Below, in pieces: positions 1,076 to 58,504 of a stretch of DNA of 64,000 nucleotides. The DNA is taken from positions 50,282,001 through 50,346,000 of the forward strand of contig OZ360239.1 in the NCBI GenBank assembly GCA_977017645.1, read 5' to 3'. Under the pieces are notes generated by a model that was not told where the DNA came from, did no database searches, and saw nothing but the letters and a program-made list of their open reading frames with translations. Source of the DNA: Torpedo marmorata. Its lineage: Eukaryota. Within the stretch, counting starts at the first letter, position 1; every line of letters starts with the position of its first letter. A program made the translations under genes and the position numbers.

Positions 1076-1772
1076 ATTCACCTCAAGGCTGTGATACCTG
1101 TGATCATTCCAGCCATGATTTTTTACAGTTACAGCTGTGTGGTCATGAACGATGGGAAAGTCAGTGCTTTGTTACTTGTTATTAATTTCCTTCTCACGCC
1201 CAAGGCACACTGCCCTCTATTATTCAACTTATACACCAACCTATCTAACATATACGGTAGTTGTTAATTCTATCATTTTTGTTTCATGTCTTCTTTTCCT
1301 CACTTTCTCCTATTTATTTATAGATGTATATATTAAGACAATGCATCCAGTATACACATTGGTCTGTTACTCTCTGGGCAGAAACAGCATTAGAGTATCA
1401 TCACACGTTAGATAGTATATTTAAAAACATTGGCAAAGCAATCTTAAAAAGAGGGGAAAATGCAGTCACTGGCTACTGACTTCTGAGGAAGGCTTAACAA
1501 TAATTTCTTATCTGCATGGTTCCCTGAACAAACAACAATTGAGCTTTGAATAATTTGAGGCACAGATGGGCAAAGCCCAGATGAAAAAGGCAGGTTTTAA
1601 GGGCCATTTTAATAAAAGAAAAGAGAGCCAGGGATGATGAGATATTTAATTCCAGAATTTAGTGCCATGGCAGCTGAAGATATGGCCACCAATGGTGCAG
1701 CAATTAAAAGCAAAGAAAAAGAAGTTATCTCAAGAAAGAATGTTATAAGAATGTAAAAGTTTATAAACATAG

Positions 1773-2373
1773 TGTAGCGACTACCATCCATAAAAAAGCC
1801 GCTCGGAGGCTAAGTAGGCTTTTTACTGTGACACGTTAGAACAAATTCTTATCGAAGTCCAGACGCGTTTTAAAGCTGTTTATTATTGAACACGAAAGGA
1901 CTTGATAACGATAACTGTAACGTCCGTGATAATGGTAACGTCTGTGCTAACGATAACTGTAACGACTAACGTAACGTCCATGTAACGGTCAACAGAAAAT
2001 ATCGGAGCCCTACTCACCCACCGTCTCCCGCCATACCAGTCAACGCGGGCTAACTACACTCCAACCACGCACAACCCCAGCGCATGCACCAACTCCCAGT
2101 GAATGGCGCATGCTCACTGGCGAAAACGCTGGCCCAGGCTGAAACCGCTCACTGCCGGGGCCGAGCCAAGCGCACATGCGCCGCCACACTCTCTCTCTTT
2201 CTCTCTCTCTCGAGCCCCCCCCTCCACCTGTTAAACGGTGCCGGCCGTCGCGCATGCGGCCAATGGGCGGAGGGTGAGAGTGAGCGTCTTCGCGCAGCCT
2301 CCGGACCCCGGGACACCACCAACGCCTGCAGACAAACCAAGAAACGGTAAACAACGGGCCTTTGGCTCTTACA
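1773..2373 (-). repeat. 3' LTR of BEL-1 (601 bp)
   Basis: Starts tgtagcgactacc and ends ggctcttaca; homologous to 9063-9623 plus 10288-10323; CpG-rich. Confidence 0.95.
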
Positions 2374-2387
2374 CCGGCCCCTAATTA
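2374..2387 (-). promoter_or_regulatory. Polypurine tract of BEL-1
   Basis: Sense strand TAATTAGGGGCCGG abuts the 3' LTR; identical to the tract of BEL-2 at 54611-54624. Confidence 0.8.
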
Positions 2388-2605
2388 TTATGTCTCAATA
2401 ATAATTACACAATTATAAATACCAATCAAATACAGTAAATTTCAATATTATGTAGATCTTCTTTCTTCATAGGCCAGAGGTTACCAGCACATGGCCTTGA
2501 AAAGAGTGACCTTTACCACCATTCTGGACCAGTAAAGTCTGTAGTCTGTGTAGTGAGCAAGGGGCAAGGTCCAAAAAACAACAAAATAAAGTCAGTTGGG
2601 GCTTG

Positions 2606-5600
2606 TCAAAGTTCCTCTGTCTCCTGTAGAAGGCAGACTTTGTTGATGGGTCTGTTCAGAAAGCCGGTTTTGGTCTTGATCCGAACATGACGTACAAGTC
2701 CCTTTTTGTCCAGAATGGTCTCAACAATTTTTCCAGTTAGCCAGGAGTTTCGAGGCGTTGAATCATCCATGATGAACACGATGTCTCCTGGTGTGAAGTT
2801 GCATCTGATGTTAGACCATTTTTGTCGTTCCTGCAGTTGGGGGAGATATTCTTTAATCCATTTTTTCCAGAACAAGTCCGACATATACTGAACTTGCCTC
2901 AACCTGCGACGAGCATATATGTCTTCCTTCTGAAACTGCCCTGGTAGCATCGATGGCATAGTCTTAAGGAGCAGAAGATAGTTCGGAGTAAGAGCTTCAA
3001 AGTCATTTGGATCTGTAGAAGCCTTGGTGATTGGACGACTGTTGAGGATAGCCTCAGCTTCACATAAAACTGTGTGGGACCCTCCTTGTCAAGACTTTGC
3101 ACATTTAGGGTGGAATTGAGAACCTTTCGCACTGATCTAATTCATCTTTCCCATACACCTCCATGGTGTGAGCCAGCAGGGGGATTGAAGATCCAATTGA
3201 TTCTTTTCTGGAGCAGTGTATTATGGATTTGACCCTGATTCCAGCTTTCAATCGCCTCCCTCAACTCGCGCTGAGCTCCCACAAAATTGGTGCCATTGTC
3301 AGATCGTAGTTCTTTCACTTGACCACGTCTAGCTGTAAAATGCCAAAGGGCATTGATGAAAGAGTCTGTATCAAGTGATGATGCCACTTTGATGTGAATT
3401 GCTCTTACAGCTAAACATGTGAAAAGAACACCATAGCGCTTCACAACACTCCTTCCACGTTTCACTTCAAAGGGTCCAAAATAATCGACTCCAACATATG
3501 TGAAGGGAGGTTCATCAGGAGAGACTCTGTTCAGGGGCAAATCTGCCATCTGCTGTTGTCCAGGAGTAGCATTTATACGCCGACAAACAACACATTTCGA
3601 CACAATTTTTCTGATTGACACAGTGGCGTAGTCTGGATAACATATGGTTGCGACCACCATGACCCACATCTTCATGAACATGTCGAAGAATTAGATCAGA
3701 AATGTGAAAATCTTTGGTCAGTGTGACAGGATGTTTCATCTCTTCTGGCATTGCTGCTCTGCTAAGTCGCCCACCAACTCTTAATACATCATTTTCCAGA
3801 ATGGGGTTGTGTTTACAAATGTGGCTAGTCTTCTTAACATTCATTCTTTTTCTCAGACTTGAGATTTCACCTGCAAATCTCTTCTTCTGGCAAAAGCAGA
3901 TTATCTCCATTTCAGCATTAGCCAGTTCGTCAACTGTGAGACCACTGTTTTCCTAAGTCTCAAGATTTCCTGTCTCCTTTTGTGGCAGACCTCTGTGCTG
4001 GATGTCATCTGGATGAAGCTGAGCAAGAACACCGCTTGCTTGTTTCCTCTTTCTGCTACGATACAGAAGCAGTCCTTTAAGTCTGAGCATCCACACTACT
4101 GCCCTTTTCAAATGAGTCCATGATTAGAAGTATTTGATTAAGCAGGTTACTGGATCCACTTCTTCAGATTTAAGAGACCTTTGGTGAGATTTCTTCCAAT
4201 CCATCAGGATTTTGAGGCCACTCTTCCTGAGGCCGAAGTAGAAACTGAGGCCCGTACACCCATATTTCTTTCTTCAGAAAAGATTTGACTTTCAAACCTC
4301 GGGAACCCATGTCTGCTGGATTGTTAACTGTGTTAACATATCTCCACTGTAGTGCATGTGAGACTTTGTCAATTTCAGCAACTCTGTTGGCCACGAAAGT
4401 TCGGAACCTTGTGGTCTTATTGTTGATGTATTTGAGCACAGAGGTGCTATCGGTCCAAAATATGGAGTCTGCTAGTTCCATCTGCAGCTCTTTTCTCCAC
4501 ACTGTGTCCATTCTGCTCGTCATGGTGGCAGCAGTCAACTCCATTCGAGGGATAGTGACTGGCTTTAATGGAGCCACTCTTGCTTTTCCCATCACATACC
4601 CACAATGTGCCTGACCATGGTTATTATGCAGTAACAGGTAACTAACAGTTCTGTAACCGTCCTCACACGCATCAGCAAAATGATGCAGTTGAGCAGATGT
4701 CACCGTTCCAAAGTTTGTGGGTTTGAAGCATCTGTCAACCTTGAAGTCTTCCAGCTTATGAAGATCCTGAATCCAACACATCCATTCCTGTACAATGGAG
4801 TCTGGTATCGTATCATCCCAACCAATCCTTTTCCTACAAAAATCTTGCAGGATCTTCTTGGCAGTCAGGACTACTGGTGCCAATATTCCTAGAGGGTCAT
4901 ATATCGAACTGACTGTTGAAAGAATCCCCCTTCTTGTGAGGAATTGGTCTTTCCGATGATTTTGAACTTAAAAACGTCAAGACTGAACACACCATTGTAT
5001 ACCTAACACCCTCTCCACAGGAAGGTTGTCATGGTCCAAGTCCAGATTCTTCATTTCTTTTGCTCTCTCTGTTTCAGGTATGGCAGCCAACACATGACGA
5101 CTGTTACTTATCCACTTAGTAAGTAGAAAGCCTCCCTTGAATCAAATCACTCGTAGTTCATGATAAAGAGCTATTGCATCTTCTTCTAAAGCTGCTGAAG
5201 TGAGGCAGTCATCCACATAGAAGTTGTTCATGATGGTGCTTACAGCTTGAGGGCTAAACTGTTTCATATTGTCCTCAGCACAATTCCTAAGGGCAAAGTT
5301 CACACAACTTGGAGATGAAGTTGCTCCAAATAGATGCACTGTCATTCTGTATTCCACCATGTTCTGACTGTCGTCTCCATCAGGCCACTAGAGGAACCGT
5401 AACAAGTCACGGTCTTCATTTGATACTTTCACCTGGTGGAACATTGCTTCAATGTCTGCAGTGATGACAACAGGTTCTTTACGGAATCTAGTCAAGACTC
5501 CTATCAATGTACTGGTCAGGTCTGGCTGCTGTAAGAGCTGATAATTTAGTGAAACTCCCTGAAATGCCGCTCCACAGTCAAACACCACTCGAAGTTTTTT

Positions 5601-6560
5601 CTTTTGTGGGTGCAAACCCCATGGTGTGGTAGATACCATTTTTTGCCATCGCTACGTTCCAAGACACCATCTGGTACTTTCTCTGTACAATATAACCTTT
5701 GGATATCATGTCAGACATGAAGTTGGTGTAGTCCGATTGAAAGGAAGAATCCCTCTTGAATCTTCTCTTTAGGTTCAGTGTACGTTGTTCAGCAACACTT
5801 TTATTGTCAGGCATGCATATTTCTCTTTCCTTTAAAGGTAATCCAATGCAATCGAGTAGCTTGGCCGAGTTTAATACTAAATCCAAGAATTGCTTGTCTT
5901 CTCTTGAAGGTTCTTGGTCGTCACTTGAGGCACTCAGGAAAGTCAGTCCTGAACTGCTGTTCCCACAGCTCATCAAGTTTCACAACTGATATCCTGTTGA
6001 CACTTGTCGCTGACTGCTCCTGAGCATTGTCGTTTTTTCCTCCTAATGGTCCATTAATCGTCCAACCAAGCATGGTTTTGACAGCGTAAGGTCTGTCTCC
6101 CACATCCATATTACATCTAGTGGTTCCAGAGCCTTTGGTACATCTGAGCCAATCAGCAACTCTATCTCAGAGCCAATTTCAGGTAGATGAACATTCCTTA
6201 GATGAGACCACTGATCAATATCGTTTTGATGTGGGATGTTTCCTTTGTGCACAGACATAGTCTTTTGAGTGTATATGCCTGGGAGATCACAAAAATCACT
6301 GCTGTCCAGTCCAGCGACCTCTAGGCCTGAAGCAATGCTGGTTTCAACGACTTTCCTTTGACCTGTAGTTCTCAATAGAATCCTTGACCTTCTTCCCTAA
6401 AGATTAAGCTTATTCATTAGCCCGACTGTGCAAAATGATGCAGTGCTACCTGGGTCAAGAAATGCATAAATATGCACTGTTGCATTCCTCTTCCTGGCCT
6501 TGGCTTGTACAGGCACTATTGAGAGTTTGCAGTTATCTTCACCGGCCCCAGTAAGACCAC
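2606..6560 (-). pseudogene. pol: BEL/Pao pol (protease, RT, RNase H, integrase), broken by frameshifts and stops
   Basis: ORFs 6397-6693 (AFLDPGSTASF protease), 5388-5639 ([18 protein letters not shown]), 5142-5360 (HLFGATSSP, NFYVDD), 4170-4883 (QLHHFADA, IPRMEL, FWTDS), 3142-3910 (GVDYFGP, SDNGTNF, GGVWER), 2606-2959 (YLPQLQERQKW). Confidence 0.92.
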
Positions 6561-8623
6561 TTGTTAGAACGGAGGCAACAGCACTGTTTTCAGCTGCTTT
6601 CTTTATTTCTGCTTGCTCCTTTTCCATTTCCTTCTTTGGTGGATATGCAGCATTCTGGGATGCTTTAAACTGCATATGTTGCAGCTGAGTCACTTCCTGC
6701 AGTTTTTGCTGATGTGTCCTTTACACAAACAGCCAAAACACAGTCCATTTTCTTTTAGGAAAGCGATTTTCTTACTATGTGCCCTCTTTTCCAACCGTGG
6801 ACACATCTCAAAGCATGTCCACCTCCACAGAACAAACAGCTCTGCACAGCAGGCAAACTCTCCTTTTCCTTAGTTCCTTTATCATTTTCCTTATCTGCAA
6901 CTTTCACCGTGGTGGCAAAGATTCTTCCTTTCATTCTTGGATGAGGCTGTGACTTGGACCTCCTTGCATCTTTGCTCACTGTTGGAGTGCCTTTCATACC
7001 TCCAAATACTGGATCTGTTGCAATCTGCACTTGCCATTCAAGGAAATCCACCATATTCTTAAAGGTAGCTCTTTCATTGCATTTTGCCTGGAAATCACAG
7101 GCCACAGTTCTCCATATATCCCTCAGCCGGTAGGGCAACTTCCTTATGATGACTAGCATATTAGCAGGCATGTCAAGCTCATTCATGTAGTTGATATCTT
7201 CCATGGCATTACAACATCCTCTTAGAAAGAGGGCGTATGCTTGTAGAGCCTTTGTGTCATCCGGTTTTATTGACGACCATGAAAGAGCCTTCTCCATATA
7301 AGCTGTAGCAATTTTATGCTCGTTGCCAAAATGCTCCTGTAATAAAGACTTAGCCTTCCTGAATCCTCTGTCCGAGGCCAAATGTTTGCAACACCTTACA
7401 GGTTCCCTTGGCTGTCCTCTTGTGTACTGTTCCAGATAATAGAGACAATCTCTGGGGTTTTTGTTCTTGCTTTCAATACTGTGTTCAAAGGATTTAATGA
7501 ACGCTTGGTACTGAAGTGGGTCACCATCAAAAACTTGAATCTCCTTCTTGGGCATGGAAGAGAGACACTGTAGCTGGATTAATAATGTAGTGATTTCATT
7601 TTGCCTTTCCATGGCTGAGAATACGTCAAATCTGTTCACCGTTGCTTGTAGCAGGTAATGTAGCTGGAGATGTCACGTGACCGTTCACCCGGATTTCTGA
7701 TGCTTGACTGGAGTGTCATGGGAGCTGTGGTGAGAGATTGGATTTGAGCTACAGCTTTGTCTGCGGTTGTTATTATTGATGTTTGTGGATTGGTAACACC
7801 GTGCTTTGGGAGGATTTGTCCATGTGAATGCATGTCTTGTAACTGTGGTACAAAAGGATCTGCCTTAGCATTGTGTTTTCTTTTCCTGTTGTCCTTTCTC
7901 AAAATATGACTCCATACCATCAGACACTTCAGATAAGTTACTTCGAACACTGGATTCCTTTGAGGCTCCTAGTACCTTCACTTTAGCCATAGTAGCAGCA
8001 ATATTTGCTTCCAGCTCCAGCTGCTACTTTTTCCTCCTTAGCTACTCCTCCTGCTCTTCCAAGGCATATTTATCCTTAAGAAATTTTTGTCGTACAACAA
8101 GAGCAGCCATTTCAGCCTCAGCCTTTATACGTGCAGATGTAGTACTGGACACTCTGGAGCTTGATCCAGAAGAACTTTGTTTGCTTCTCCTGCTTCCAAC
8201 ATTTGACACACTGTCACCTGGTTCTATTTCATCCTGCATGTCAGATGTTGCCTTAATATTTGACACTTTCTCCAGTTTGAATTGCACATCCTTTGCATTT
8301 TCATCCTCTTCACCACCATTTTATGACACACCTTAAGCCATTTCCATGTTTCTGACTTTAAATTCAGTCGATGTCTTCTGCAGTGGTTTTACAGGGTCTT
8401 CATTCCCATCAACCAAAGCCACCTCTTCTTCTATTGCCTGTTTCAGCCTCGCAATGAGAACGCTTTTGACACCACTTATATCTAGGTTCCGCCGCTTCAG
8501 TTCTGATTTGAGATCTGTGATTCCCATGTCTGTGATACATTGCGCCTCAGCGGCAACACCGTCAGCAGTGGTGGCGGCAGCACCAAGCACGCACAACACA
8601 AGCCAAAAATCAACCGTCCCCAA
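6560..8623 (-). pseudogene. gag: BEL/Pao gag with N-terminal SAP domain, disrupted
   Basis: ORF 6755-7639 (FDGDPLQYQAF, LEQYTRGQP, KLPYRLR; DUF1759-like) with Cys/His knuckles at about 6640-6850; ORFs 8042-8287 and 8333-8623 are in one frame, separated only by stops. Confidence 0.85.
8423..8536 (-). other. SAP domain resembling SLTM/SAFB N-terminus, at the start of BEL-1 Gag
   Basis: [38 protein letters not shown] fits the SAP consensus (L..L...L..RGL...G.K..L..RL) and closely matches SLTM as recalled from memory. Confidence 0.85.
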
Positions 8624-9043
8624 TGGACAAGCGGCAGCACATCCAAACTGTTTTCAAACTTGCAACAAATACACAGAAGGAATCCACAAACGTAATCCTA
8701 CCGCTTCTGATGGCTGTGATGCACTGCTGTCAACTAGCAAGTTTCCACCGCGGCAGCAGTCAATAATATCGCTGTGATTCTCGGCAAATGACTCTACCAG
8801 CGTGTATGTAGGACATTCTGCTCTAGGGTTAGAAGCCCTGGATCCCTCTGTGGCCGATGCTCAGACCAATGGAGGCGATTTGCTGTCAGTGGCCTGCGCT
8901 CGGCATTTCCAACATGGCCACCATATTGTTTTCAGTATCGCTCCAAACCGAAGAGGGGAAAGAGTCCAAATGTTCCAACAATGTCCATTCAATCCAAAAC
9001 TCCAAGATTCAAGGCGTCCATGCAGTTCTGTCGTAGATGCGAC

Positions 9044-9057
9044 TATTTTCTGTTGAC
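9044..9057 (-). promoter_or_regulatory. Non-canonical PBS-position sequence of BEL-1, complementary to its own LTR
   Basis: Sense GTCAACAGAAAATA, 5 nt downstream of the 5' LTR, with no TGG; exact reverse complement of LTR segment 9279-9292. Confidence 0.75.
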
Positions 9058-9062
9058 TAATA

Positions 9063-10323
9063 TGTAGCGACTACCATCCATATAAAAGCCGCTTGAAGGC
9101 TAAGTAGGCTCTTTACTGTGACGCGTTAGATCAAATTCATATCGAAGTCCAAATGCATTTTAAAACTTTATTATTGAACACGAAAGGACTTGATAACGAT
9201 AACTGTAACGTCCATGATAAAAGTAACGTCTGTGCTAACGATAACTGTAACGACTAACGTGGTAACGTCCATGTAACGGTCAACAGAAAATATTGGAGCC
9301 CTACTCACCCACCGTCTATCCCGCCATACCAGTCAACGCGGGCTAACTACTCTCCAACCGCGTACAACGCCTGTGCATGCGCCAACCCCCAGTGATTGGC
9401 GCATGCTCACTGGTGAAAACGCTGGCCCAGGCTGAAACCGATCGCTGCCGGGGCTGAGCAAAGCGCGCGTGCGCCGCCACGTTCTCTCTCTTTCTCTCGA
9501 GCCCCCCCTCCACCCGATAAATGGTGCCGGCCGTCGCGCATGTGGCCAATGGGCAGAGGGGGAGAGTCAGCGTCTTTGCGCAGCCTCCGGACCCCGGGAC
9601 ACCGCCAACGCCTGCAGCCAAACTGTAGCGACTTCGTCCAATAAAAATAGTCGCTTGGAGGCTAAGTTAGGTGTTTGTCTGCGACGCGTTTTCATTAATT
9701 TACCAACAAAGTCCAAAACGTTCAAAAACCTTTATTTACCTTTGACTTGCAGTAATCTTCGATGACTTTAATATAAACAGTTCTTGAAATGATGTAAAAC
9801 GATGTAAAAAGGTTATAAAACGATCTAAAACGTGTATTAAACGATGTTAAAACGTGTTAAACGATGTCAAACGTGTTCCAAACGATGTCAAAACGGTTGA
9901 CAGGAATTGTCGACACCTAACTCACCCTCCTCAGATTTCCAACCGACGACTCGCGTGGGGGAACCTGTATTTAAACGCGCAGATCCCACCCGCGCATGCT
10001 CCGTTGTGCACGCGCTGGCCCCGGCCCCAACCGTTCGCTGCTGGGGCTGAGCCAACCGCGCATGCATCTACCTAGTCCATGGCGCATGCGCACTGATGTG
10101 GTGCCGGCCCCGGCTGAAGCCGCCGCTGCCGAGCCAACCACGCATGCGCCGCCACGCTCCAGCTCCGTGAGCGGTGGCGGCACTCGCGCATTGCGGCCTA
10201 CGGGAGAGGCCTACGGACCCCGGGACACCTCCGGCGCCCGTGGCCAAAACAGCAGGAAAGTAGGGAGCCTATGGCTCTTACACAAACCAAGAAACGGTAA
10301 ACAACGAGCCTTTGGCTCTTACA
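9063..10323 (-). repeat. 5' LTR of BEL-1, split by a nested solo LTR
   Basis: 9063-9623 and 10288-10323 together match the 3' LTR. Confidence 0.92.
9624..10282 (-). mobile_element. Solo LTR of a related BEL/Pao family (659 bp)
   Basis: tgtagcgact...ggctcttaca termini shared with BEL-1 but a divergent interior; 5-bp TSD CAAAC (9619-9623 / 10283-10287). Confidence 0.9.
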
Positions 10324-18051: not shown

Positions 18052-18076
18052 TGTAGGTCCAAATTCGTTTGGACTT

Positions 18077-18089
18077 GTCGGGGTTACCA
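18077..18089 (-). promoter_or_regulatory. Primer-binding site complementary to tRNA-Trp 3' end
   Basis: Sense TGGTAACCCCGAC versus the tRNA-Trp PBS TGGTGACCCCGAC (one mismatch), 1 nt from the 5' LTR. Confidence 0.85.
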
Positions 18090-18090
18090 A

Positions 18091-27371: not shown

Positions 27372-28337
27372 TTTACGAATCTGTTTTGATATCTTCGCCC
27401 CTGCAGAAATTCACATGCAAATTTTTTGAGACTGTCAACACTTCAGACTATCTGTCCTGAAGTTTGTGATGCTCATTTGTTATTCTTTATGGCCAACATA
27501 ACATCCAGTAAATATGCTGCATAAAGCACTATTGGTCAGTATTTCTATTTCAGATATTATCTATCATAATTGTAAAATGAGCACGCAATCAAATATGTGA
27601 AAACCGATTAATATGGAGAAATCGGTTCTCTTGGCAATGGTCCAAAGTATGGATTTCTGTTTAATTTCCAAGCCCCGCTTGACAATTCTCCATGAGTGCC
27701 CCTAACCATACAAGATGAAAAAATGTATTCTGATATGTTTGTTTAACAATGTTTCATAAATTTTGGCTCTGCTTGTCAGCAATTTGATGCTGTAACTCAT
27801 GGTCTCTGCCAGTAAAAACAGCTCTGACATTCCTTCTGGTAGAATGACATTTGTGTTTATGGTCATTCTCTTCAGCACAATTTTGTTACGCACGCAGCCT
27901 AACTAGAAAAAGCAAATACTTGAACTATAAACAGACAACTGATCAAATTCAATATATTTATCGTAGCATTTAATATAAGAGGAGCGAGCTACTTGTGCGA
28001 TCTGAGGTTTATTGTACAACCACAGAACTGAGTGGGGTCAAACAAGGGACATGGCATTTACTGTCATTTATGCTGCTGTATTGGTGCAAGTGTTATGGTG
28101 GTATAAAGTGTCTGATCATGTTATGTTGCTATGACTGCATAGTACTTAATTATAACGGAAAATAAAATCATTTTTTAAATTTAAGGCTTGCTCTTGCTAT
28201 GGATGGACTCAGATTCTGGACCACTCTGTAACTTTTATAACAACTGCAAACAATTTTATAGCTGTATGTGTGTTTTATACCTGGACTGGGAAGGTTGCCT
28301 TTATGAGGAAAGGTTGGGCTTCAACCTTCTGGAACTT

Positions 28338-38100: not shown

Positions 38101-41100
38101 TACTGGGGGAGACAAGACAAGACCTCTACAGGAGGGATGGTTTACACCTGAATGCAAAGGGGGCCAATTTACTGGCAGTTAGGTTTAATAATGCTGTTGG
38201 ATTTGATTTAAACTAATTTGGCAGGGGGAAGGGAACAGGACTGATAGGGAAGCAGATAGGAGAGTGAATATAGGGGTGGTTCCGATAGATGGTGAAACCA
38301 TAAGGAAAAGGGGAACTAAAAGTGATAGGAGAGTAGGGGCAAGTGCATCAGGAACAAAGGTGGAGGGAGAAGGGAGATATGGTATCAAGGTATTGTATAT
38401 GAATGCACGGAGTGTAAGGAATAAAATGGATGAGCTTGAGGCGCAAATGGCAATGGGAGGTTATGACATTATCGGAGTAACGGAGACATGGCTGCAGGAG
38501 GGACAGGATTGGGAAATAAATGTTCCAGGGTACACGTCCTATAGAAAGGACAGAAAGTTAGGAAGAGGTGGTGGGGTAGCTCTGTTGGTAAGTAATGAAG
38601 TTCAGGCGTTTGAAAGGAAAGACATTGAAACAGGTGGGCTAGAGTCTGTTTGGATAGAATTAAGAAATTGCAAAGGCATGAAGACCATAATGGGGGTAAT
38701 TTACAGGCCTCCGAAAAGTAGCTCAGATATAGGAAGTAGTATAAATCAGGAATTAAGAGTGGCATGTCAAAGTGGTAGCAATACGGTAGTTATGGGGGAC
38801 TTCAACATGAAGGTGGACTGGGAAAATCAGACGGGGGCAGGAAAACAAGAGAGTGAGTTTATAGAATGTCTACGAGACACATTCTTGGAGCAGCTAGTGG
38901 AGGAACCTACCAGGGGAAGTCGATTCTGGACTTGGTGCTGTGCAGCGACGCAGAGTTAATAAGTGACCTCGAAGTAGGGGTGCCATTAGGGAATAGTGAC
39001 CATGGTATGGTTACTTTTGATCTGCAATTGGAAAGGGAAAAAGAAAGGAAGTCGGAAGCATCTATACTGCAGTTAAATAAAGGGGATTATGCAGCTATGA
39101 GGGAGGAGCTAACCAAAATAAAATGGAAAGATACACCAGCTGGGAGGACAACTGGGGAAAAATGGCAGGTATTTTTGGACATTTTTCACAGGATTCAGGA
39201 CAAATTCATTCCAAAGTGGAGGAAAGGCTCAAGGAGATGCAAATGGCAGCCGTGGCTAACTAATGAAATAAAGTGCATTATCAAGTCCAAAGGGAGTAAG
39301 TATAAGATAGCGAAGCAGAGTGGGAAGCTAGAGGATTGGGAAACCTTCAAAGAACATCAGAGGGTAACTAAGAAAGTCATACGAGAGGGGAAAATGAAGT
39401 ACGAGAGGAAATTAGCAAATAATATAATAGAGGATAGCAAAAGCTTTTTTAAATATGTGAAGAGGAAGAAATTGGTTCGGTCTAAAATTGGTCCATTAAG
39501 AATGGAAAAGGGTGGAATTATTACTGGAAACAAGGAAATGGCTGAGGAATTTAACAAGTACTTTGCATCTGTCTTCACCAAGGAGGATATAGGTTATGGT
39601 CAGTTAGGGGGTAGTGGTCATGCGGTATCAAGAGACTTGGGGAACTTTCCTCGGGAAGTAGGGAATCTGATAGATATCCGGATCCAGAAGCAGGAGGTTG
39701 TGAGTAAATTGTTGGGACTGAGGGCTGATAAATCCCCAGGGCCTGATGGGCTGCATCCCAGGGTGCTTAAAGAGGTTGCTCTGGAAATTGTGGAGGCACT
39801 GGTCGACATTTTCCAAAGCTCCATAGATTCGGGGGAGGTCCCTGTGGATTGGAGAGTGGCTGATGTGGTGCCGCTTTTTAAGGAGGGAGGGAGAAAACGG
39901 GAAATTATAGACCGGTCAGCCTGACGTCAGTGGTGGGGAAGATATTGGAATCTATCATAAAAGGAGTAATAGCAGAACACTTAGGCAGAAATAATAGTAT
40001 AAGGGCTAGTCAGCATGGATTCCTTAAGGGTAAGTCATGCTTGACTAACCTTCTGGAATTTTTCGAAGATGTGACAAAGAGGGTGGACTTGGGAGAGCCA
40101 GTGGATGTGGTGTATTTGGACTTCCAGAAGGCCTTTGATAAGGTACCGCACGGGAGACTAGTGGGCAAGATCAGGGAGCATGGTATTGAAGGTAAGGTGC
40201 TGACATGGATAGGAAATTGGTTAAGAAATAGGAAACAAAGGGTTGGGGTAAGCGGGTCTTTTTCAGGATGGCAGGATGTGACGAGTGGAGTGCCGCAGGG
40301 ATCGGTGTTGGGTCCTCAGTTGTTTGTCATTTATGTAAATGATTTGGATGATGGGATTATTAATAACATGAGCAAATTTGCAGATGACACTAAACTGGGT
40401 GGCGGTGTAAAGTGTGAAGAGGATGTCAGGAAAATGCAGAGGGACTTGGACAGGTTGGGGGAGTGGGCTGAAGAATGGAAGATGAAGTTCAATGTGAGCA
40501 AATGTGAGGTTATCCATTTTGGGGGCAGTAATAGGAAAGCTGAGTATTATTTAAATGGAGACAAGCTAGGGAGTGGGGAAGTGCAAATGGATCTGGGTGT
40601 ACTTTTTCACCGGTCACTGAAGGCTAACATGCAGGTTCAGAAAGCTGTGAAGAAGGCAAATGGCATGTTGGCTTTCATAAAGAGGGGATTGGAGTATAGG
40701 AGCAGGGACGCCCTTCTGCAGTTGTACAGGGCCCTGGTGAGACCCCACCTGGAGTATTGCGTCCATTTCTGGTCTCCAAATTTGAGGAAGGACATACTAG
40801 CTATAGAGGGTGTGCAGCGCAGATTTACAAGGTTAGTTCCAGGGATGGCAGGGTTGACATATGCTGAAAGGTTAGAAAAACTGGACTTATATCCGATGGA
40901 GTTTAGAAGGATGAGGGGGGACATGATTGAGGTATACAAAATTATCAAGGGGATAGACAGGGTGAAGTCGGATTACTTGTTCCCAATGACGAGGACTAGA
41001 GGGCATAGTTTAAGAATACAGGGAAGGCCCTTTAGGACGGAGATGAGGAAAATTTTTTTTACCCAGAGAAGTGTGAATTTGTGGAATGCTCTGCCACAGA

Positions 41101-41300
41101 GGGTGGTAGAGGCAGATTCGCTGATTATGTTCAAAAGAGAGTTAGATAAGACTCTAGTGGGCAGAGGAGTTAAGGGTTATGGGGATAAGGCTGGTAAGTG
41201 GTACTGATAGTAGTGATCAGCCATGATCTGTAAAATGGCGGTGCTGGCTCGACGGGCCGAAGGGCCTACTCCAGCTCCTATTGTCTATTGTCTATTGTCT
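38101..41300 (+). mobile_element. Young CR1 LINE, 5'-truncated within ORF1
   Basis: ORF1 esterase end (DLYRRDGLHLNAKGANLLA, stop at about 38216), near-complete ORF2 and (CTATTGT)n tail. Confidence 0.93.
38390..41207 (+). pseudogene. CR1 ORF2 (APE endonuclease plus RT), two frameshifts
   Basis: ORFs 38264-38959 (YMNARS, VTETW, GVIYRPP, GDFN), 38866-39924 (SDH, KSPGPDG) and 39930-41207 (QHGF, LDFQKAFD, GVPQGSVLGP, FADD). Confidence 0.92.
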
Positions 41301-48480: not shown

Positions 48481-49439
48481 AACTATTCTTTGTTTATATG
48501 CAAAGATCTTATACATATACAAAATATACATATATAAAAATAAATAAATAAATATTGCTTAGTAAAGATTAGTGTCTTGGATGGTTAGTGTGAGCATTTC
48601 CTTTGGTCGTTCAGCATTCTCACTGCCCATGGGAAGAAACTGTTTCTCAGCCTGGTGGTGCTGGCTCTGGTACTCCAGTATCTCTTTTCCGACGGGAGTA
48701 GTTGAAAGATGCTGTGTGCAGGGTGGTAGGGGTCGTCAACGATTTTGCACGTCCTCTGCAGACAACGATCCCAGTAGATCACGTCGATGGGGGGAAGGGA
48801 GACCCCAGAGATCATCTCTGTCACTCTTATGGTCCTGTAGATTGACCTCCGATCCAATTCTCTACAGCAACCGTACCACACTGTGATACTGTTATAACAT
48901 ACCATAAGGACTGTTATGAGGTTGAGGTTACTTTTGCCAATACTATCATGTATAGATGAATTTCAGTAAGTGGTTTGGTGATAACAAGATAAAGCTGATT
49001 TAGTAAAATTGTTGTTTTGCAGACCCAGTCTGGCAGCTATGTTCTTCAGGGCTTGCCCACCTCACTCTGTTGTGGTGCTACTGTTGATAGTGGATATTGA
49101 AGCTCTCCCATCCAGAATATATTCTATGTCACTGCTACTTTCACTGCTGATGATAAGAAACAAGATAGTGTGGGTTGTGGGAATGATGCAGATACGTGTA
49201 GTGCATTGGCAAGGACATGGAATTGGAATATAAAGTCAAATAATGGCAATTTTCTTTGGCAGAAAAAATGGAAAGGCAACGTATTTTTTTAAATAGTGGA
49301 TGACTGAAAGGAATTGGTGTTCAGAGGGAGCTGAGCATTCTTGTACTCAAATCACTGAAAGTCAGCAAGCAGTTAGAAGAGTAAATGGTATGTTGGCCAA
49401 TACTGCAAGAGAATTTGAGAACAAAACAGGAAACATTAT

Positions 49440-49966
49440 TGTAAGAGCCAAAGGCTCGGTTCTTACCTTAATCGCGGCGTTCTGATGGTCTCAGCGGGTG
49501 TCGGAGGACTCACGGAGATTAGTAGGCCGTGCTAGGACTATTGACTACTCTGCGCATGCGCAGGAGTGCCGATGAGTGCATGCGCAGTGGGGAGGTGGCT
49601 GGAGCATGCGCGGTGGAGCATGCACGCGAATCGGGAAAGAAGTATAAAAAAAACATGGCGACGTAGAGGAGGGTGAGCGAGATCATCATAGTTTTCATTG
49701 ACCGTTATTAATGACGTTATAAAGGATCGTTTTAAAGGAACGTTATTAAGAATCGTTATTAAGCATCGTTATCAAGGATTGTTATCAAGGATTGTTTATA
49801 TTTCGTTAAAGAAGATATTTAAGTTATTGAAGATTGCTACAAGTCATCATGTGTTAATAAACATTTTGAACATATTGGATTTTGTTAGTAAATTAATTGA
49901 AATGTGTCAAGAACAAGTGTCTCACCGAGCCTCCAAGTGACTATTTATTGGATTGAAGTCACTACA
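49440..49966 (+). repeat. 5' LTR of BEL-2
   Basis: tgtaagagcc...gtcactaca; TATA box at 49643, AATAAA at about 49856, GCGCATGCGC motifs. Confidence 0.93.
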
Positions 49967-49971
49967 ATTTA

Positions 49972-49984
49972 GTCAATGAAAACT
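49972..49984 (+). promoter_or_regulatory. Non-canonical PBS-position sequence of BEL-2, complementary to its own LTR
   Basis: GTCAATGAAAACT, 5 nt after the LTR; exact reverse complement of 49690-49702 AGTTTTCATTGAC. Confidence 0.75.
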
Positions 49985-50424
49985 TATTGTTTGGAACAGA
50001 AAATTGAAGAATAGAAGATAGAATAAGCTCTCTGTGCTTTGGATTGATATTTAAAATAAGATGGTGGCCATCTTGGAAATGCCTCGAGTGAGGGGCAGTT
50101 TGTAATCAACATCCATCTGCCATGAGTAACAGCCAGAGAAGGATTCAGAGCTTCTAATCTTATAGTAAAGTATCCTATAAATACGTTGGTGAAACCATTT
50201 CTTGAAAATCAGTGATATTATTGACGGATGCTGCGGTGGAAACTCATTTGTTAATAGCAGCATATTACAACCATCTGAAGCGGTAGGCATAAGTCTATGG
50301 ATTCCTTCTGTGTATCTTTGGCAAGTTTGAGCACAGTTTGGATTTGCTGCCGCTAGTCCTTTGGGGACTGTTGATATGGCTAGAGTTGTGCATTCTCGAC
50401 GGACGGTGGAACAAGACGAGGAAA

Positions 50425-53236
50425 ATGGCCGCAGCAGCCGCTGATGTTGCTGTTGAGGAACAACTTATTGAAGACATGAATGTTGTGGATCTCAAAGAAG
50501 AATTGAGGTGACGGAAACTAGACACAAGTGGAAATAAAAATGTTCTCATTGCAAGACTGAAGCTGGCAAAAGTAGAAGAGGCGGCGGCTTCAGTTGATGG
50601 GAATGAAGACATTGCAAACTCATTGCAGAAGACAACGACTGAACATGAAGACAGCAACATGGAAATGGTTGAAGATGTGTCACCAAATGGTGATGAAGAA
50701 AATGAAGGGGATGAAGATGCAAAGGATGTACAATTTGAATTGGAGAAAGAGGTAAGTAAGAAGACAACATCTGACCTGCAGGACGAAATACAAGCAAGTG
50801 ACAGTGTGTCAAATGTTGAAAGCAGGAGAAGAAAACAAAGTTCTTCTGGTTCAAGCTCAAGAGTTTCTCGTACTTCAAGTTCTGCATCGTCAAGTACAAA
50901 GATTGAAGCTAACTTGGCTGCTCTTCTTGCACAACAAAATTCCCTTAAGGATAAACATATTTTAGAAGGACAGGAGGAGCAGCTAAGGCAAAAGGAGGAG
51001 CAGCGAAAGCAGCAGCTAAGGCAGAACCAGGAGCAGCTAAGGCAGCAGCTAAGGCAGAACCAGGAGCAGCTAAGGCAAAAGGAGGAGCAGCTAAGGCAGC
51101 AGCTAAGGCAGAACCAGGAGCAGCTAAGGAGCTGGAAGCAAATATTGCTATTGCCAGGGCCAGAGTGAAGGTACTAGAAGGCTCAATGGTATTGGTGCTC
51201 GGAGTAAATTATCTAAAGTGTATGATAATAAGAAGTCATATTTTAAAAAAGAGCTGTAGGAAAAGAAACCAGCAAAAAAAGGCAGATATTTTAGTACAAC
51301 GGGTACTTGCAAATACAAGGACAAATTCTCCAAGAGCATGGTGTTATCGAGTCACATGTACCAGTGGTAACATCCGAAGACAAAGCTGCGGCTTGGGTTT
51401 GGTCAAACGCCGCAGATCCTTTGGCATTAGAGTCAAGCATCAGAAATACGGGAGAAACTACACCAGTGAGGTTTCCAGATACATTACCTGTTACAAGAGG
51501 CGGTGAATGGAGCAATGTATTATCAGCCATGGGAAGACAAAATGAAATTGCTGCATCATTAATTCAGTTACAGTCTCTCTCTACTTTGCCCAAGAAAGAG
51601 ATACAAACTTTTGATGGTGATCCACTTCAGTTCATGAGATCTTTTAGACGCTATATTGAAAATAAGTGTCAAGACCCTGAAGAATGTCTTTATTATTTGG
51701 AAATGTTTACAAAAGGACAGCTAAGGGAACTTGTAAAGAGTTGTCAACATAGGTCTTTGGATTAGACAGAGCTAAGTCTTTACTAGAACAGCATTTTGGC
51801 AACAAGCATCAAATTGCTTTAGCTTATATGAATAAAGCTCTTAAATGGACATCAATAAAACCGAATGATTTAAAAGCTCTACAAGCATACAGTCTCTTTT
51901 TAAGAGGATGTTGTAATGCCATGGAAGATATCAATAATATTTGTGAGCTTGATCTGCCTGGTAATATGCGAATCATCTTAGATAAATTACCTTACAAGAT
52001 GTGTGATAGATGGAGAAATTTAGCTTGTGTTTTCCAAGAAAAATACGATCAAAGAGCTACCTTAAAGGATTTGGTAGATTTTCTTGAATGACAAGTGTAC
52101 ACTGAAACAGATCCAATATATGGAAATACCAGAGACAATTCAATGGGGAACAAAGATGTAAGGTGGTCTAACTCACAGCCTAGTCCGAAATTGAAAAGGA
52201 GTACTTTTGTTACAGCTGTGTCAGTTATAAATAAAGAAAAAGATAAAGTAAATAAGGAAAAGGAGAGTTTGCCTAAGAGAAAAGTTGTTTGTTCTGTAAA
52301 GGTGGACATGCTTTGGAAATGTGTTTAAGGTTGGAAAAGAAGGAACATATTGAGAAGATCGCTTTCTTAAAGGAAAACGATGTTTTAGCTGTCTGTGTAA
52401 AGGGCACATCAGTAAAAATTGCGAGAAGTGAATTAACGGTAACATATGCAATTTGAAGCATCGTAGAATGTTGCATATACATCAAAGAAACAAGGAATTG
52501 GAAAAGGAGCAAACAGAAACAAAGGAAACATCAGACAAGTGGTCTTACTAGGGCCGGTGTGGATAACTGCAAACTTTCAATAGTGCCTGTACAAGTCAAG
52601 ACCAAGAAAGGGAATGCAACAGTACATACATATGCATTTCTCGACCCAGGCAGCACTGCATCTTTTTGCACGGTGGGACTAGTTAACAAAATTAATCTTC
52701 AAGGAAGAAGGTCAAGGATTATGTTGAAAACCATGGGACAAGAAAAGGTCGTTGAAACCAGCATTGTTTCAGGCTTAGAGGTTGCTGGATTGCATGACAA
52801 AGAATTTTATGATCTTCCAAGTTTATACACTCAGAAGACTATGCCTGTGCACGAAGGAAACATTCCGCATCAAAATGATATCCCTCATTTGTCTTATCTG
52901 TGGAAGGTTTATTTACCTGAAGTTAATTCTGAGGTAGAGATGCTGATTGGTTCAAATGTACCAAAAGTTTTGGAACCACTAAAAGTAATACGGAGTAGAG
53001 GGAATGAACCTTACGCTGTTAGAACCAAGTTTGGTTGGACAATCAATAGACCATTAGAAAGAAATAATGATATTGCACAGGAACAGTTAGCGATAAATGT
53101 TAACAGGATTTCAGTTGTGAAATTTGATGAGTTAAGGGAGCAGCAAAAGACTGTAAATAAGAAAGTCAGTTTTGAACAAAAGAAAACAGATCAATGTGAA
53201 AATCAATCAAAGGTATTTAAAACAACATTGAAATAA
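50425..53236 (+). pseudogene. gag: BEL-2 gag-protease with N-terminal SAP domain, disrupted
   Basis: ATG at 50425 (aaaATGG): MAAAAADVAVEEQLIEDMNVVDLKEELR*RKLDTSGNKNVLIARLKLA, in frame with ORF 50623-51168; DUF1759-like 51307-52091; protease AFLDPGSTASF in 52559-53236. Confidence 0.85.
50969..51132 (+). repeat. In-frame minisatellite coding (E/Q)QLRQ repeats
   Basis: Repeated gagcagctaaggcag / cagaaccag units; BEL-1 has a single EEQEE-L unit at this position. Confidence 0.85.
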
Positions 53237-54390
53237 TTATTTTCATCAGAAATGGATGATAATGAAGTATTAGAAGATGTTGCAAATAATACTAGTGAGT
53301 ATTCCTGTGTAATTGAATCTGAGGCAGGAATAAAGCAAATGACTGAGAACAAATGTGAAAGTAGATTTTGTAGCTGAGGTTACAGCAGACAAGGTAAATA
53401 AAGAAATGTTGCAACATGATGCAAAACTGGCGAACGCAGAAAATTGTGCTGATACAATAAAGAAGCATGTGACTGATAATTTAATGCAATTGAATTCAGA
53501 GAACAAAATGTTGAAAAGGGAATTGGAAATATTGGATAATCATGAAAACAGTAAACAAAGATTTAATTGTAAATAAAATTCGCAAAGTCAGAAAGTTGAA
53601 GAAAAGAATAACTGCTGAAGAAATAAATAGTTATTGAGGAAAGAGATTCAGCATTATCAAGATATAAAAGGTTGGAGGAAGAGATTCATCTTTTGAAAGA
53701 GAACAAGTTATTGGTTAATAACACAAAACAGCTGACTACAGAAAACAATCAAGAATATAAATTGAAGGTTCAGCTACTAACAATGCAGAAAGAAAGTGAT
53801 ATTGCATTGCAGCAATGTAACAAGCAAGATGAAGAAATTCAAACATTGCAAGTTTACCATAGTGGGATTGACAATAGAAGTATCAATATATCACATGATA
53901 TTTTCACTTCAAATCAAGTTATTAATTTCTCGGAAGAAAATGAGACTGAATCGAAAGTTGCGAAATTCAATATGGAATTGAAGGAAAAAGCAATAGAAAC
54001 CACAGTGGTTGAAAAGACTGCAGTTTTAGTTAAAGGAATTTGTATGAGCCATAAGTGGAACCTGTCTACTTATTTACAGAAGGTTTCTACAAATGTTGTG
54101 GATGTTGATGAGTTTGAAGAACTAATATTGTTTGAATATTATCTTTGTATGATCAACTGTGGAAAAGAAAGAAAAGGATGAGCAAATCTGTTGCAAGAAA
54201 GGTTAAAGAGACTCGTTTATTAAAATCGAGAGGATCAGATAAATATTCAAAATCTGGTTCTGAAAGTTCATATTATTCCTATGAGAAACGACATGCTGAA
54301 GAAGTACCTCATGTTAAATTCAAAAGGAAAACAGTATCTATTTTGTCTGAGGAAGATTTGAGGTTTACTGGTCGACGTTTTAACTCAAAG
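53145..54390 (+). pseudogene. AT-rich, coiled-coil-coding cargo replacing pol in BEL-2
   Basis: E/K/Q/L-rich ORF pieces 53355-53576, 53672-54181 and 54145-54414 with no RT or integrase motifs; BEL-1 homology stops after NRISVVKFDEL.EQQ and resumes at gaactttga. Confidence 0.6.
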
Positions 54391-54624
54391 ATTCTGGAGA
54401 TAAAAGAACTTTGATAAATACAAACTGACTGTATTTTGTTGTTTTTGTATACTACACAGGTTACAGAATTTATTGATCCAGAGTGATGGTAAACTCTGGT
54501 CTTATGAAGAAATAAGAAAGAAGATTTGTATATTATTTGAATGTTATATGATTATTGTTATTTGTAATTGATTGTGTAATTATTATTTCAGACATTACGT
54601 CTCATTATAATAATTAGGGGCCGG

Positions 54625-55153
54625 TGTAAGAGCCAAAGGCTCGGTTCTTACCTTTATCGCGGCGTTCCGATGGTCTCAGCGGGTGTCGGAGGAGTCACGG
54701 AGATTAGTAGGCCATGCTAGGCCTATTGACTACTCTGCGCATGCGCGGGAGTGCCGACAGGCGCATGCGCAGTGGGGAGGTGACTGGAGTATGCGCGGTG
54801 GAGTATGCGCGGAGGAGCATGCACGTGAATCGGGAAAGAAGTATAAAAAAAAACATGGCGACGTAGAGGAGGGTGAGTGAGATCGTCATAGTTTTCATTG
54901 ACCGTTATTAAAGACGTTATAAAGGATCGTTTTAAAGGAACGTTATTAAGACTCGTTATTAAGCATTGTTATCAAGGATTGTTTATATTTCGTTAAAGAA
55001 GATATTTAAGTTATTGAAGATTGCTACAAGTCATCATGTGTTAATAAACATTTTGAACATATTGGACTTTGTTAGTAAATTAATTGAAATGCGTCAAGAA
55101 CAAGTGTCTCACCTAGCCTCCAAGTGACTATTTATTGGATTGAAGTCACTACA
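54625..55153 (+). repeat. 3' LTR of BEL-2
   Basis: Matches 49440-49966; preceded by TAATTAGGGGCCGG. Confidence 0.93.
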
Positions 55154-56518
55154 ATTATGTTTCAATTATATAGAACCTTAGTAAGACTGGTTCTTAAATA
55201 TCTTCCTTGTTTGGTCTCCCAACTCAAGTAAGGATATATATGATAGATGAAATGTAGCAAAGGATCACCATACTGATTCTTTTAGTGACTTTTTTGTGAG
55301 GAGAGATAAAGGCCCTGTAAAGTCTAAGGTTTAGAAGAATGGGAGATGCTGTCACTGAAATGCACAAAATTGTCACAGGGCTTGACAAGGTGGATGCTAA
55401 GTTGTTTCCCTAGGCTGGAATGCCTCGAGCCTGTGATCACAGTATAAAATAAGGCACCAGCCAATCAGGAATGAGATGAAAATAGTTTCATTCACCCAGA
55501 GTGTTGGAATTCTCCATCCAGAAGGACTTCAAAGTTGCAGTCACTGAGCATGTTCTAGACAGAAATCAACAAATATTTTGACATTAAGGGAATCAGTGAT
55601 ATAAAATCTATGCAGGAAGTGGTTCTGAGGTAAAAGATCAACTGTGATTTTTTTTGAATGTCTGAGCAGGTACGAGGGGCTGAATGGACTTCTCCTGTCT
55701 CTATTTTTGTATGTTTATATTCCAGGTTTGCTCAATATGACACTGAATTATCAGTTGTGAGAGGTTGGAAATAGGTAATTAGGAGAAGGTTTTCTTGCTC
55801 ATGTTTGCCCTGACACCATGGGACTTCCATGAGGCCTCGTCATTTTTCAGGATTCTCAGGTCAATTCCTTCCTGTGAACAAGTATCTGTATTGCCCCCTC
55901 TGGTGGGACAGGATGTAACCAAGTATCTTGAATGAGGAATCTGGCATCTTGCCTATAGGATATAATTCTAAGTAGGCATATTAGATTGGTGATTAACTTG
56001 CCTTTTGGGATAGTCATCACTTTAGACACGTTCCCTGATGTTTGTGAGGACAGGGAACAACTTTTCCATATTGAAACTGATTGTTTTGATTAATTCCTAA
56101 TGGTCTTTCTGATTTTTTTTTTGTTACACAACCAAGGTCAGCGTGGAGTCATGCATTTATCAACCCTAATCTAGCTTAATTCACAAAGAACTATTTAAGT
56201 TGAAAGCTCCAATTTTCCATCTGATCATATGCATTGCAAAATGTGATTAATTTGGCATCTACATTTTATTTTGACTGAAATACTGTACCATGAAAAATCC
56301 ATAGTAATCAGCGTCGGGTAGGAAGCATATCCATGATGGTATGATTAATGTGCTTTCACTGCATTCTGAGAAAAATATAAGCAGAATAAAAGCAGAATTT
56401 GCACACCATTAATTGGTCTTTCATTCTGATGAAAGAGAAACTGGTAGTTTATTTTCAACCCAAGGAGGGATAGGATTGTTGAGAAGATAAAAAATTTCAA
56501 TGAAGAATGTGAAGGAAA

Positions 56519-57710
56519 TCTCTCGAAGAATGCCTCTGTATCAAAATAATCTTATCCCATTTACTGTTGATAATTATTTATTTAAAATTTGGTTCCAAAA
56601 GGGAATTAAGGAAATAAATGATTGTTTTGAAGCGGGTAAATTTATTATGTTTCAAAGAATGAAGGATAAGTTTAATGTAGCAAATAATACAATCCTTGCT
56701 TACTATCAAATCAGAGCATTTTTAGTTGAAAGGTTGGGCCATAGTTTGATTTTACCAAGACAGACGGAATTGGAATTATTAGTTACTACTGGAGGTGTTC
56801 CTAAATTTATTTCTCAAATGTATGTATAGATTGTTACAGAAAAAATTGCCTAAGCCAGGAATTCACAAATCAAGATTAAAGTGGGAAGCAGATTTGAATG
56901 TAACAATAGATGAAGAACACTGGAGGGAATTATGTAAACAAAGTATGACAAAGATTATTAATGTTAGATATAGATTGGTGCAATATAATTTTTTTCATCA
57001 ATTATATTTAACATCTAAAAGACTAAAGAAATTTAATCCGACATTATCTGGTTTATGTTTTAGATGTAATAGTGAGGAAGGTTCCTTTGTACATTCTACA
57101 TGGCTTTGTCCAAAGATGCAGGATTTCTGGTTGAAAGTTAAAAAGTTTTTGGACAAAGTATTAAGAATTACACTCCCAATGGATCCTATGATATTTTTGT
57201 TTGGAGATATTAAAGGAACCAGTGTTAAAATGAAATTAGATATGTATCAAACAGAATTTTTACGTATTGCTTTGGCCGTTTCTAAGAAATGTATTGCCAT
57301 TACATGGAAATCAGATGTAGATTTAGGGTTAGAAAGATGGCATGCTGAATTGCGTTCATGTATACCACTTGAAAAAATTACTTATAATTTACGTAATAAA
57401 TATCATTTCTTTTTGAAAATATGGAGCCCATATATAAAAACTGTCGGTTTAAGGATTTGAGGATCTACACATATTGGATCTGACTGGCGGACCTGTGTTC
57501 CACTATAAAATTAGGTTATAGTAGTTTTGTTTAGAGTGATATTCTCCTTACTTTATCTTTTTCTTCTCTCTTTCTTTCTTTTCGGGAGGGTTAGGGAGGG
57601 GAGGGAGGGAGGGAGGAAGGGGGGTGAAAATGTATCACATGTAAATTGATAACTTTGCAGTTTAAGCTATGTACTGTGTGATTTAAAATTTTAAATAAAA
57701 TATTAAAAAA
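56519..57710 (+). mobile_element. L1-clade LINE 3' fragment (copy 3, longest)
   Basis: ORFs 56500-56829 and 56795-57460 with CCHC motif; A tail; 16-bp TSD AAGAATGTGAAGGAAA (56503-56518 / 57711-57726). Confidence 0.92.
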
Positions 57711-58504
57711 AAGAATGTGAAGGAAAAAAGTGCATATTGAAAATCCCCTGAAGGAAATGCTTTTATTGGAATGCAGAGTCTGATTCTGAGTGCGTTGTTT
57801 ATTTCCAATTGCCTGCAGCTCTGAATGGGCTGAAAATGTGCCATAACCTATAAGCTAGTTTCAGCTCCTGATCATTTTGAAGTTGTTCTTTCGTGTTGGC
57901 TGCTAGAAAGGGTACTGCATAATCCTGGAGATATAACAGGAAACAAAAACATACATTTTTATAAAATTTTGTCTCTAGCCAGGAGGTTCCGAAGTGCTTT
58001 AGAGCCAGTATAATTTTATTTTGACGTGAATTCACTGTTGTAGGCTGTCTTGAAACTAAATGAACTTGAAAGTTGGACGTGACAAAATTCTGCTATATGC
58101 CAGTTTTAGACTCATGCCAGTCACCATGTGACAAATAAAGGTTTCTGCACAAAATGTGGATCAACCACTTTTTTGGAGTTGGACAGATTCAAAGGTCTAG
58201 AAACTCAGTTATGTAGCACTGGTTTTGTTTATAAACTCTGCAGGAGAATGGACAATTTGCTGATAATTTGATGACAACCTGCAGTCATATAATTGTAGTA
58301 CTATTCAAACTGAGGAGTATGGGGAAAGAAATAAATGCACATTGTGTAATCACATATGGACAATGTACATCATGCTAAGCTAGCTGGGATCCATGTGTCT
58401 AATGCACCATGTGAAATGCACATAGGAACTCCCATCTTAGCAGCAGGAAGAACCACCAGCCACCATCACCACCCTTACCCAACACACTACCATTACCACC
58501 TAGT

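Follow-up and report, generated by a model that had tools for sequence, protein, structure and literature searches.

The start of Gag in a lineage of BEL/Pao LTR elements of the ray Torpedo marmorata was probably replaced by spliced host mRNA, from SLTM and a FIP1-like gene, and the SAP domain captured in this way likely binds nucleic acid for the element. Sequence comparison of the element copies with the host showed spliced, sense, in-frame pieces assignable to four host genes in this one lineage. The window, that is, the whole stretch of DNA analysed, comprises 64,000 nucleotides of contig OZ360239.1 (assembly GCA_977017645.1, positions 50,282,001 to 50,346,000). The features of its two elements of this lineage, BEL-2 and BEL-1, are as follows.

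49440..55153, plus strand: BEL-2, a non-autonomous BEL/Pao LTR element of family C, with TG...CA ends
49435-49439 and 55154-55158: 5-bp target-site duplication around BEL-2
49440..49966, plus strand: 5' LTR of BEL-2, with 20 mismatches in 545 columns against the 3' LTR
50388..50424, plus strand: diverged remnant of the SLTM 5' UTR (~35 nt, clear in family A; left edge approximate)
50425..50565, plus strand: coding part of SLTM exon 1, with the host start codon, an Ala-rich leader and the SAP core
50464-50565, plus strand: SAP core, with a stop at 50509-50511 in the window copy
50566..50581, plus strand: first 16 nt of SLTM exon 2, a spliced junction that overlaps the switch to FIP1-like mRNA
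50575..50705, plus strand: spliced FIP1-like mRNA piece forming an acidic linker, with the end of exon 2, the whole of exon 3 and the start of exon 4 (left edge approximate)
50706..52456, plus strand: BEL Gag, with a Ser-rich part, a coiled coil with a repeat expansion, the capsid (DUF1759) and Cys/His motifs; in the window copy, stops and frameshifts interrupt it
52457..53145, plus strand: aspartic protease region; homology to the autonomous BEL-1 stops at 53145
53146..53558, plus strand: foreign segment, source not found, common to families B and C and in frame
53559..54023, plus strand: MIPOL1 exons, spliced, in permuted order, with the back-splice joint near 53857
54064..54392, plus strand: Elongin A (ELOA) exons, spliced; shorter in family C, two exons longer in family B
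54625..55153, plus strand: 3' LTR of BEL-2, with a purine tract just before it
1772..9620, minus strand: BEL-1, a decayed full-length copy of the autonomous family A (5' end approximate)
8301..8568, minus strand: SLTM and FIP1-like pieces of BEL-1 (SLTM 8422-8568, FIP1-like 8301-8430)

With LTRs of ~530 nt and a total length of 5.7 kb, BEL-2 falls within the range of BEL/Pao elements (LTRs of 0.2-1.2 kb, elements of 4.2-10 kb). The window copy is dead: it carries the stop in SAP, its frame ends at 51166 after a frameshift, and the DUF1759 match in this broken copy is weak (E 0.017). The Gag coiled coil (50954-51129) contains an internal repeat expansion of seven overlapping copies in 12/21-nt steps, and the length of this repeat differs between element copies. 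BEL-1 has the order gag, protease, RT, RNase H region and integrase (PR-RT-RH-IN, as in BEL/Pao), with profile matches to DUF1759 (E 1.6e-9), Peptidase_A17 (E 1e-45), rve and DUF5641 (E 1e-28); its RT motif was read from the translation. The SAP of BEL-1 scores 40.1 bits with the Pfam profile, and its SLTM and FIP1-like pieces are 89-100% identical to the host exons. At 9620-9900, a BEL-2-like LTR end abuts the 5' LTR of BEL-1, which is without a normal start. The window also holds a Penelope-like GIY-YIG frame (11238-12626), a Gypsy-type LTR element (14002-18397), a LINE with endonuclease and RT (38207-41207) and three LINE 3' fragments (26544-27442, 32592-33438 and 56783-57712).

A preliminary description of this DNA had proposed that a SAP-Gag fusion in BEL-2 begins at an ATG in good Kozak context and is hidden by a single decayed codon. 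The translation of 50425-50760, with its single stop at 50509-50511, was as described there, and the ATG (A at -3, G at +4) is the start codon of host SLTM. With X at the stop, this translation matches Pfam SAP (PF02037) at 44.8 bits (E 9e-12; cut-off 23.9). The domain is indeed masked by this stop, because the two halves scored separately gave E 8e-4 and no match. It proved to be decay and not a family trait: it is present in 14 of the 52 gapless family-C copies and absent from 38, and no other SAP column in these 52 copies has a stop. Since it occurs in a minority of copies and in each of two subfamilies (11 and 2 of 49 copies), it fits recurrent decay at a hot spot. All 77 of the stop-free copies scanned from families A-C scored over the Pfam cut-off. 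A structure prediction had been suggested as a check; the predicted model of a stop-free family-C N-terminus (pLDDT 81) shows the SAP helix pair (helices 20-29 and 38-54) in a helix-extended loop-helix fold, and its top Foldseek matches were SAP domains (rmsd 0.5-1.6), none of which reached E 0.001.

The best database matches of this SAP were ray and shark SLTM, and the host genes matched batoids best. In the host SLTM gene (contig C68), exons 1 and 2 are separated by an intron of 1.2 kb. Family-A copies match ~35 nt of the SLTM 5' UTR (38/44 copies anchored), followed by the start codon and exon 1, where 93.8 of the 102 nt of the SAP core agree with the host (42 gapless copies). After exon 1, the intron is skipped and the first 16 nt of exon 2 are matched, with 40 of 42 copies at ≥14/16; as controls, the intron matched at 5.9/16 and the next 24 nt at 7.9. 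Nucleotide identity to the host SAP is 92% in family A, 84% in B, 73% in C and ~60% in D, and the match to the host over the 102-nt core is 85.4 in B, ~74.4-74.7 in C and about 60 in D. In the tree, from which family D was left out, host SLTM is basal along with A; families B and C group together (100/99), and C is itself supported at 100/100. SAFB was considered as the donor of the family-C SAP and rejected: of 102 nt, the copies share 74.7 with SLTM and 53.8 with SAFB, and only 2 of the 11 changed columns carry the SAFB residue. By these alignments, the source of SAP is spliced host SLTM mRNA, captured once.

The sequence after SAP matched a ray FIP1-like protein in the protein search, and ~43 codons of it correspond to spliced FIP1-like mRNA. 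Exons 2-3-4 of the host FIP1-like gene (contig C47) match the linker at 90-100% in four family-A copies, and the joins in the element span two host introns of 1.5 and 5 kb. At the switch between SLTM and FIP1-like sequence, 11 of 16 letters are common to both. Downstream, Gag proper of the family-A frame is 65% identical to the database Gag P0121, the N-terminus of which is mostly absent from the element Gag. A single genome search with the N-terminus of the closest database Gag as query, run without a positive control, found no pre-capture relative. For P0124 and P0121, capsid identity to the family-A region is 84% (a grouper protein) and 81%, which is high between ray and teleost and suggests horizontal transfer of the ancestor.

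The spliced junctions already refute capture at the DNA level, as introns are absent at every examined joint. We likewise give almost no credence to a processed pseudogene inserted in one element, or to an origin of the host exons from the element. The captured pieces stand in place of element sequence and show neither poly(A) nor a duplication, in line with the earlier statement that SAP is not an inserted pseudogene, and sharks and other vertebrates have conserved versions of the host segments; the FIP1-like segment, for example, is native to the host gene, as the shark orthologue has it.

The captured start is widespread. An exact search of the 6.2-Gb genome with a 21-base SAP pattern gave 2367 matches (reversed control, 0). 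Exact-pattern counts were 47 for family A (48 minus the host gene), 61 for B, 2173 for C and 280 for D; such 21-base counts are lower bounds, and the reversed controls for A, B and C gave 0. The copy sample comprised 134 distinct copies (44 A, 31 B and 59 C) from 150 loci, half of them chosen as the closest matches to the two elements of the window and the other half as the first listed among the pattern matches, which makes for a non-random sample. At the position of the host start codon, an in-frame start is present in 40/44 A, 26/31 B and 52/59 C copies. Nine of the 134 copies are open for ≥330 codons from SAP, and four of these run into the capsid region, which places SAP in frame with Gag as the preliminary description had read it; SAP and DUF1759 scored in one frame in two of the three open frames scanned. 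That the capture is family-wide, as also claimed there, was borne out in 730 kb that had been fetched for the host genes and not for the element: all five Gag loci in it carry SAP, four whole and one truncated inside the domain. The same joints recur in dispersed copies on many contigs. In four public runs (of 15 listed), from four organisms and four studies, 184-853 contigs each span the whole stretch; the family is thus not private to the Torpedo marmorata assembly.

The 730-kb check also revealed family D. Families A and D have pol, and a family-D locus matches a 2066-aa polyprotein along its length. RT was found in 5/10 family-A loci, many of which are interrupted by insertions, in 0/10 B loci and in 1/20 C loci, and the foreign segment in 8/10 B and 15/20 C loci. 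Lacking RT, RNase H and integrase, families B and C are non-autonomous derivatives. At L196:1028-5883, a family-C-type SAP is followed by protease, RT and RNase H sequence that is 78% identical to BEL-1; this one locus of 20 is possibly an autonomous partner or a recombinant. The presence of pol at one of 20 family-C loci means that the family history includes recombination or a further lineage. Median LTR-pair divergences of 0.080 (two A), 0.083 (six B) and 0.076 (nine C) are too noisy to order the families, and some of the dated pairs may be nested repeats. The family-D copies L304-L322 are 96-98% alike downstream and highly variable in the first SAP helix; rare variants in the first SAP half number 87 N to 19 S, which is partly a selection effect of the query.

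The preliminary description had further held that SAP was under purifying selection while the families diverged. Our comparisons partly support this: the Pfam score was kept and dN/dS is 0.33-0.36 (host versus family C, 0.35; A versus C, 0.33), while the test of fixed against rare N/S changes was not significant (17 N/12 S fixed versus 192 N/77 S rare, p 0.20-0.21). The same test in family D was not significant either (p 0.34-0.42). Moreover, dN in SAP (0.23) is not below that in the rest of Gag (0.16-0.31). GC3 in SAP dropped from 0.56 to 0.36, equal to the element body, and third positions show eight GC-to-AT changes versus one AT-to-GC change; this loss of GC inflates dS. Fixed changes were no milder than rare ones by BLOSUM62 (p 0.40) and avoided the columns conserved between SLTM and SAFB weakly (5/22 versus 6/12, p 0.14). 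Shared indels speak for constraint, being in frame in three sets (4/4, 4/4 and 5/5, the first two being mostly the same events), against 21 of 80 single-copy indels; any sequence placed ahead of the capsid and behind the start codon is, however, forced to retain the frame.

The profile scores are more telling. In family C, 11.6 of the 34 residues differ from the host, and the mean Pfam score is 44.9 bits (host, 46.9; family A, 39.2). Each copy-specific change lowers the score by 2.0 ± 0.4 bits (77 of 99 stop-free natural cores scanned). Eleven neutral changes would therefore predict 25 ± 9 bits, and family C extrapolates to 51 (z 2.8, p 0.003, in a rough test that ignores mutation bias). Family D keeps ~16 of the 34 host residues, and 13 of its 15 copies pass the Pfam cut-off, with the best at 49.5 bits. 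With this statistical support, we infer that the SAP fold was kept by selection. A borrowed SAP that kept its shape while diverging likely works for the element.

The pieces might instead be passengers, kept just for the start codon and the open frame, which would serve Gag translation and protect the RNA from decay, with SAP having no binding role. This reading, which we consider unlikely, agrees with the non-significant N/S tests and the inflated dS, and with the closest fish relatives doing without SAP. It also agrees with the free change in other captured pieces: the neighbouring FIP1-like piece (50575-50705) has 17 non-synonymous and one synonymous change between A and C, which may reflect relaxed or positive selection, and MIPOL1 has a dN/dS of 0.8-1.1. 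A mere passenger, however, would not be expected to hold or raise its profile score through 11 fixed changes in family C and ~18 in family D. In addition, the dN/dS of SAP is the lowest of the five Gag parts compared between A and C (0.33 versus 0.53 in the capsid and 0.80, 1.26 and 5.0 in the others), and no in-frame SAP deletion occurs in the sampled families.

We therefore return to a SAP that binds nucleic acid. Retroviral Gags have chromatin-binding parts. By analogy, a functional SAP could tether Gag or the integration complex to nuclear chromatin, a role to which we give almost an even chance if the domain functions at all. Binding of the element RNA for packaging would be our second choice and, on the same premise, a rather doubtful one.

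Families B and C keep Gag and protease and have a foreign segment in place of RT, RNase H and integrase. This segment contains MIPOL1 (14/14 database matches) and Elongin A. Four family-B copies carry spliced pieces that match host exons on contigs C40 and C41 at 87-97%. The MIPOL1 exons are permuted: a late exon runs up to its donor site and there gives way to an exon from further upstream in the gene, which begins at its acceptor; measured against the host, the two splice sites abut to within 3 nt. This back-splice joint, which is in frame, was present in 12/12 B and 17/17 C copies showing the exon end (18 and 23 copies examined). The permuted joint matches 18.2 (B) and 14.2 (C) of 20 positions, whereas the exon that comes next in linear order scores 3.8 and 3.7. 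This order is most simply explained by a circular RNA template; trans-splicing, or a chance switch at both exon boundaries, would also be compatible with it. The first part of the foreign DNA, 53146-53558, had no usable ESM Atlas match and no host flank in one sequencing run; it possibly represents a fifth mRNA capture.

In family C the Elongin A piece breaks off within the second exon, and family B continues through a stretch that matches residues 536-645 of 8OEV chain M (E 2e-40), within which we take the BC-box motif to lie. One might suppose that the host-derived RNAs and proteins act as mimics, which would blunt SAFB/SLTM-type surveillance or silence the parent genes, with the ELOA piece recruiting Elongin B/C. 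The family-B match would suit such a decoy, as would a dN/dS of 0.28 in one ELOA exon of family C (p 0.02, uncorrected). Against it, family C, the most expanded family, lost the BC-box part, ELOA exons 2-4 in family B have a dN/dS of 1.15 (from five changes), and SAP diverged from SLTM rather than remaining a mimic; we regard this explanation as very improbable. Some of the shared small gaps in the family-C Elongin A piece are not multiples of three. For MIPOL1 and the BC-box part, nothing convincing indicates selection at the protein level.

Taken as a history, and by analogy with Tan et al. 2016 (PMC5131818), the joints suggest that host mRNAs were co-packaged and copied in the particle by template switching during reverse transcription, with the SLTM piece giving Gag a new start codon. 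A later derivative would have lost RT, RNase H and integrase through switches onto back-spliced MIPOL1 RNA and Elongin A mRNA, and families B and C would then have moved in trans. In its fullest form, which we put forward only tentatively, the lineage rebuilt its Gag from host mRNAs and made the SLTM SAP its chromatin tether, and its most successful offshoot became a polyprotein from at least four host genes, one of them acquired via circular RNA.

In the literature searched, consisting mostly of open-access papers, we found no report of a traced host-to-Gag capture of SAP or of the ray lineage. Family A resembles Belpaoviridae in its LTRs, Gag capsid and PR-RT-RH-IN order, whereas families B and C differ from them in lacking RT, RNase H and integrase; SAP is absent from the ICTV profile of Belpaoviridae (PMC8742986). 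The word 'SAP' has no occurrence in the available part of de la Chaux and Wagner (PMC3118150), nor has SLTM in that of bioRxiv 10.1101/2025.06.08.657570. SAP is described as an accessory domain of other transposons, namely Chlamys-1_pPol and Zisupton, in the accessible text of PMC8557442. The database BEL Gags P0338 and P0304 have SAP and then DUF1759 in one protein, as in the ray Gag. In all four of these cases, no host source of SAP has been traced, whereas the donor of the ray SAP has been. By capsid identity (33-40%), P0338 and P0304 rank 164 and 161 of 165, and the closest relatives (80-84%) are without SAP. Because the SAP-bearing Gags are distant and the closest relatives lack the domain, the ray SAP is an independent gain. 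A leading SAP unrelated to that of the ray, a recurrence that speaks for a role in the element, was found in 2 of 206 database Gag-like proteins, with 40 of 165 having an N-terminus long enough to show one, and none of the 64 closest database matches to the element Gag lists SAP. The distant BEL Gag P0339 shows a trace of SAP at its start. These comparisons suggest that BEL Gags gained a leading SAP more than once.

Host-like accessory domains are common in transposon proteins, but as a rule neither their donor nor the steps can still be traced. In this case, the exons of the donor, the splice junctions and graded families (92%, 84%, 73% and ~60%) are all in one genome, and four natural SAP versions beside that of the host make the change from host to element domain testable. 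The thousands of SLTM, FIP1-like, MIPOL1 and Elongin A look-alikes will also confuse ray gene annotation; the Elongin A profile gave 148 matches.

The capture route, multi-parent chimeras and LTR-linked copies of circular RNA are already in print. Tan et al. 2016 (PMC5131818), in the part of the article available to us, describe LTR-mediated retroposition in animals, with one mosquito case flanked by a BEL element. As in the ray lineage, a spliced partial host mRNA replaces part of an element ORF, several parent genes are involved, and chimeras are copied further as a non-autonomous element. Tan et al. also describe microsimilarity at switch points, to which the 11 of 16 letters common to SLTM and FIP1-like sequence may correspond. 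Their chimeras are young retrocopies, considered for a place among new host genes. In contrast, the captured piece in the ray forms the Gag start in families with pol, exists in thousands of copies and persists across four families, down to ~50% protein identity. Maize Bs1, as presented in the same excerpt, is likewise an LTR element with several host mRNA pieces in one chimeric frame; it has three parents and 1-5 copies per species, compared to at least four parents, retained Gag and protease, and >2000 copies in the ray lineage. Mouse circRFWD2 copies, as described in the consulted part of Dong et al. 2016 (PMC4897178), share a reversed exon-exon junction, an association with LTRs and multiple copies (33 high-confidence). 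Their mechanism is called mysterious there, the LTRs being just enriched nearby, whereas the ray back-spliced piece is an in-frame part of a defined LTR element, with other captured pieces on either side, and so bears on the origin of circRNA pseudogenes.
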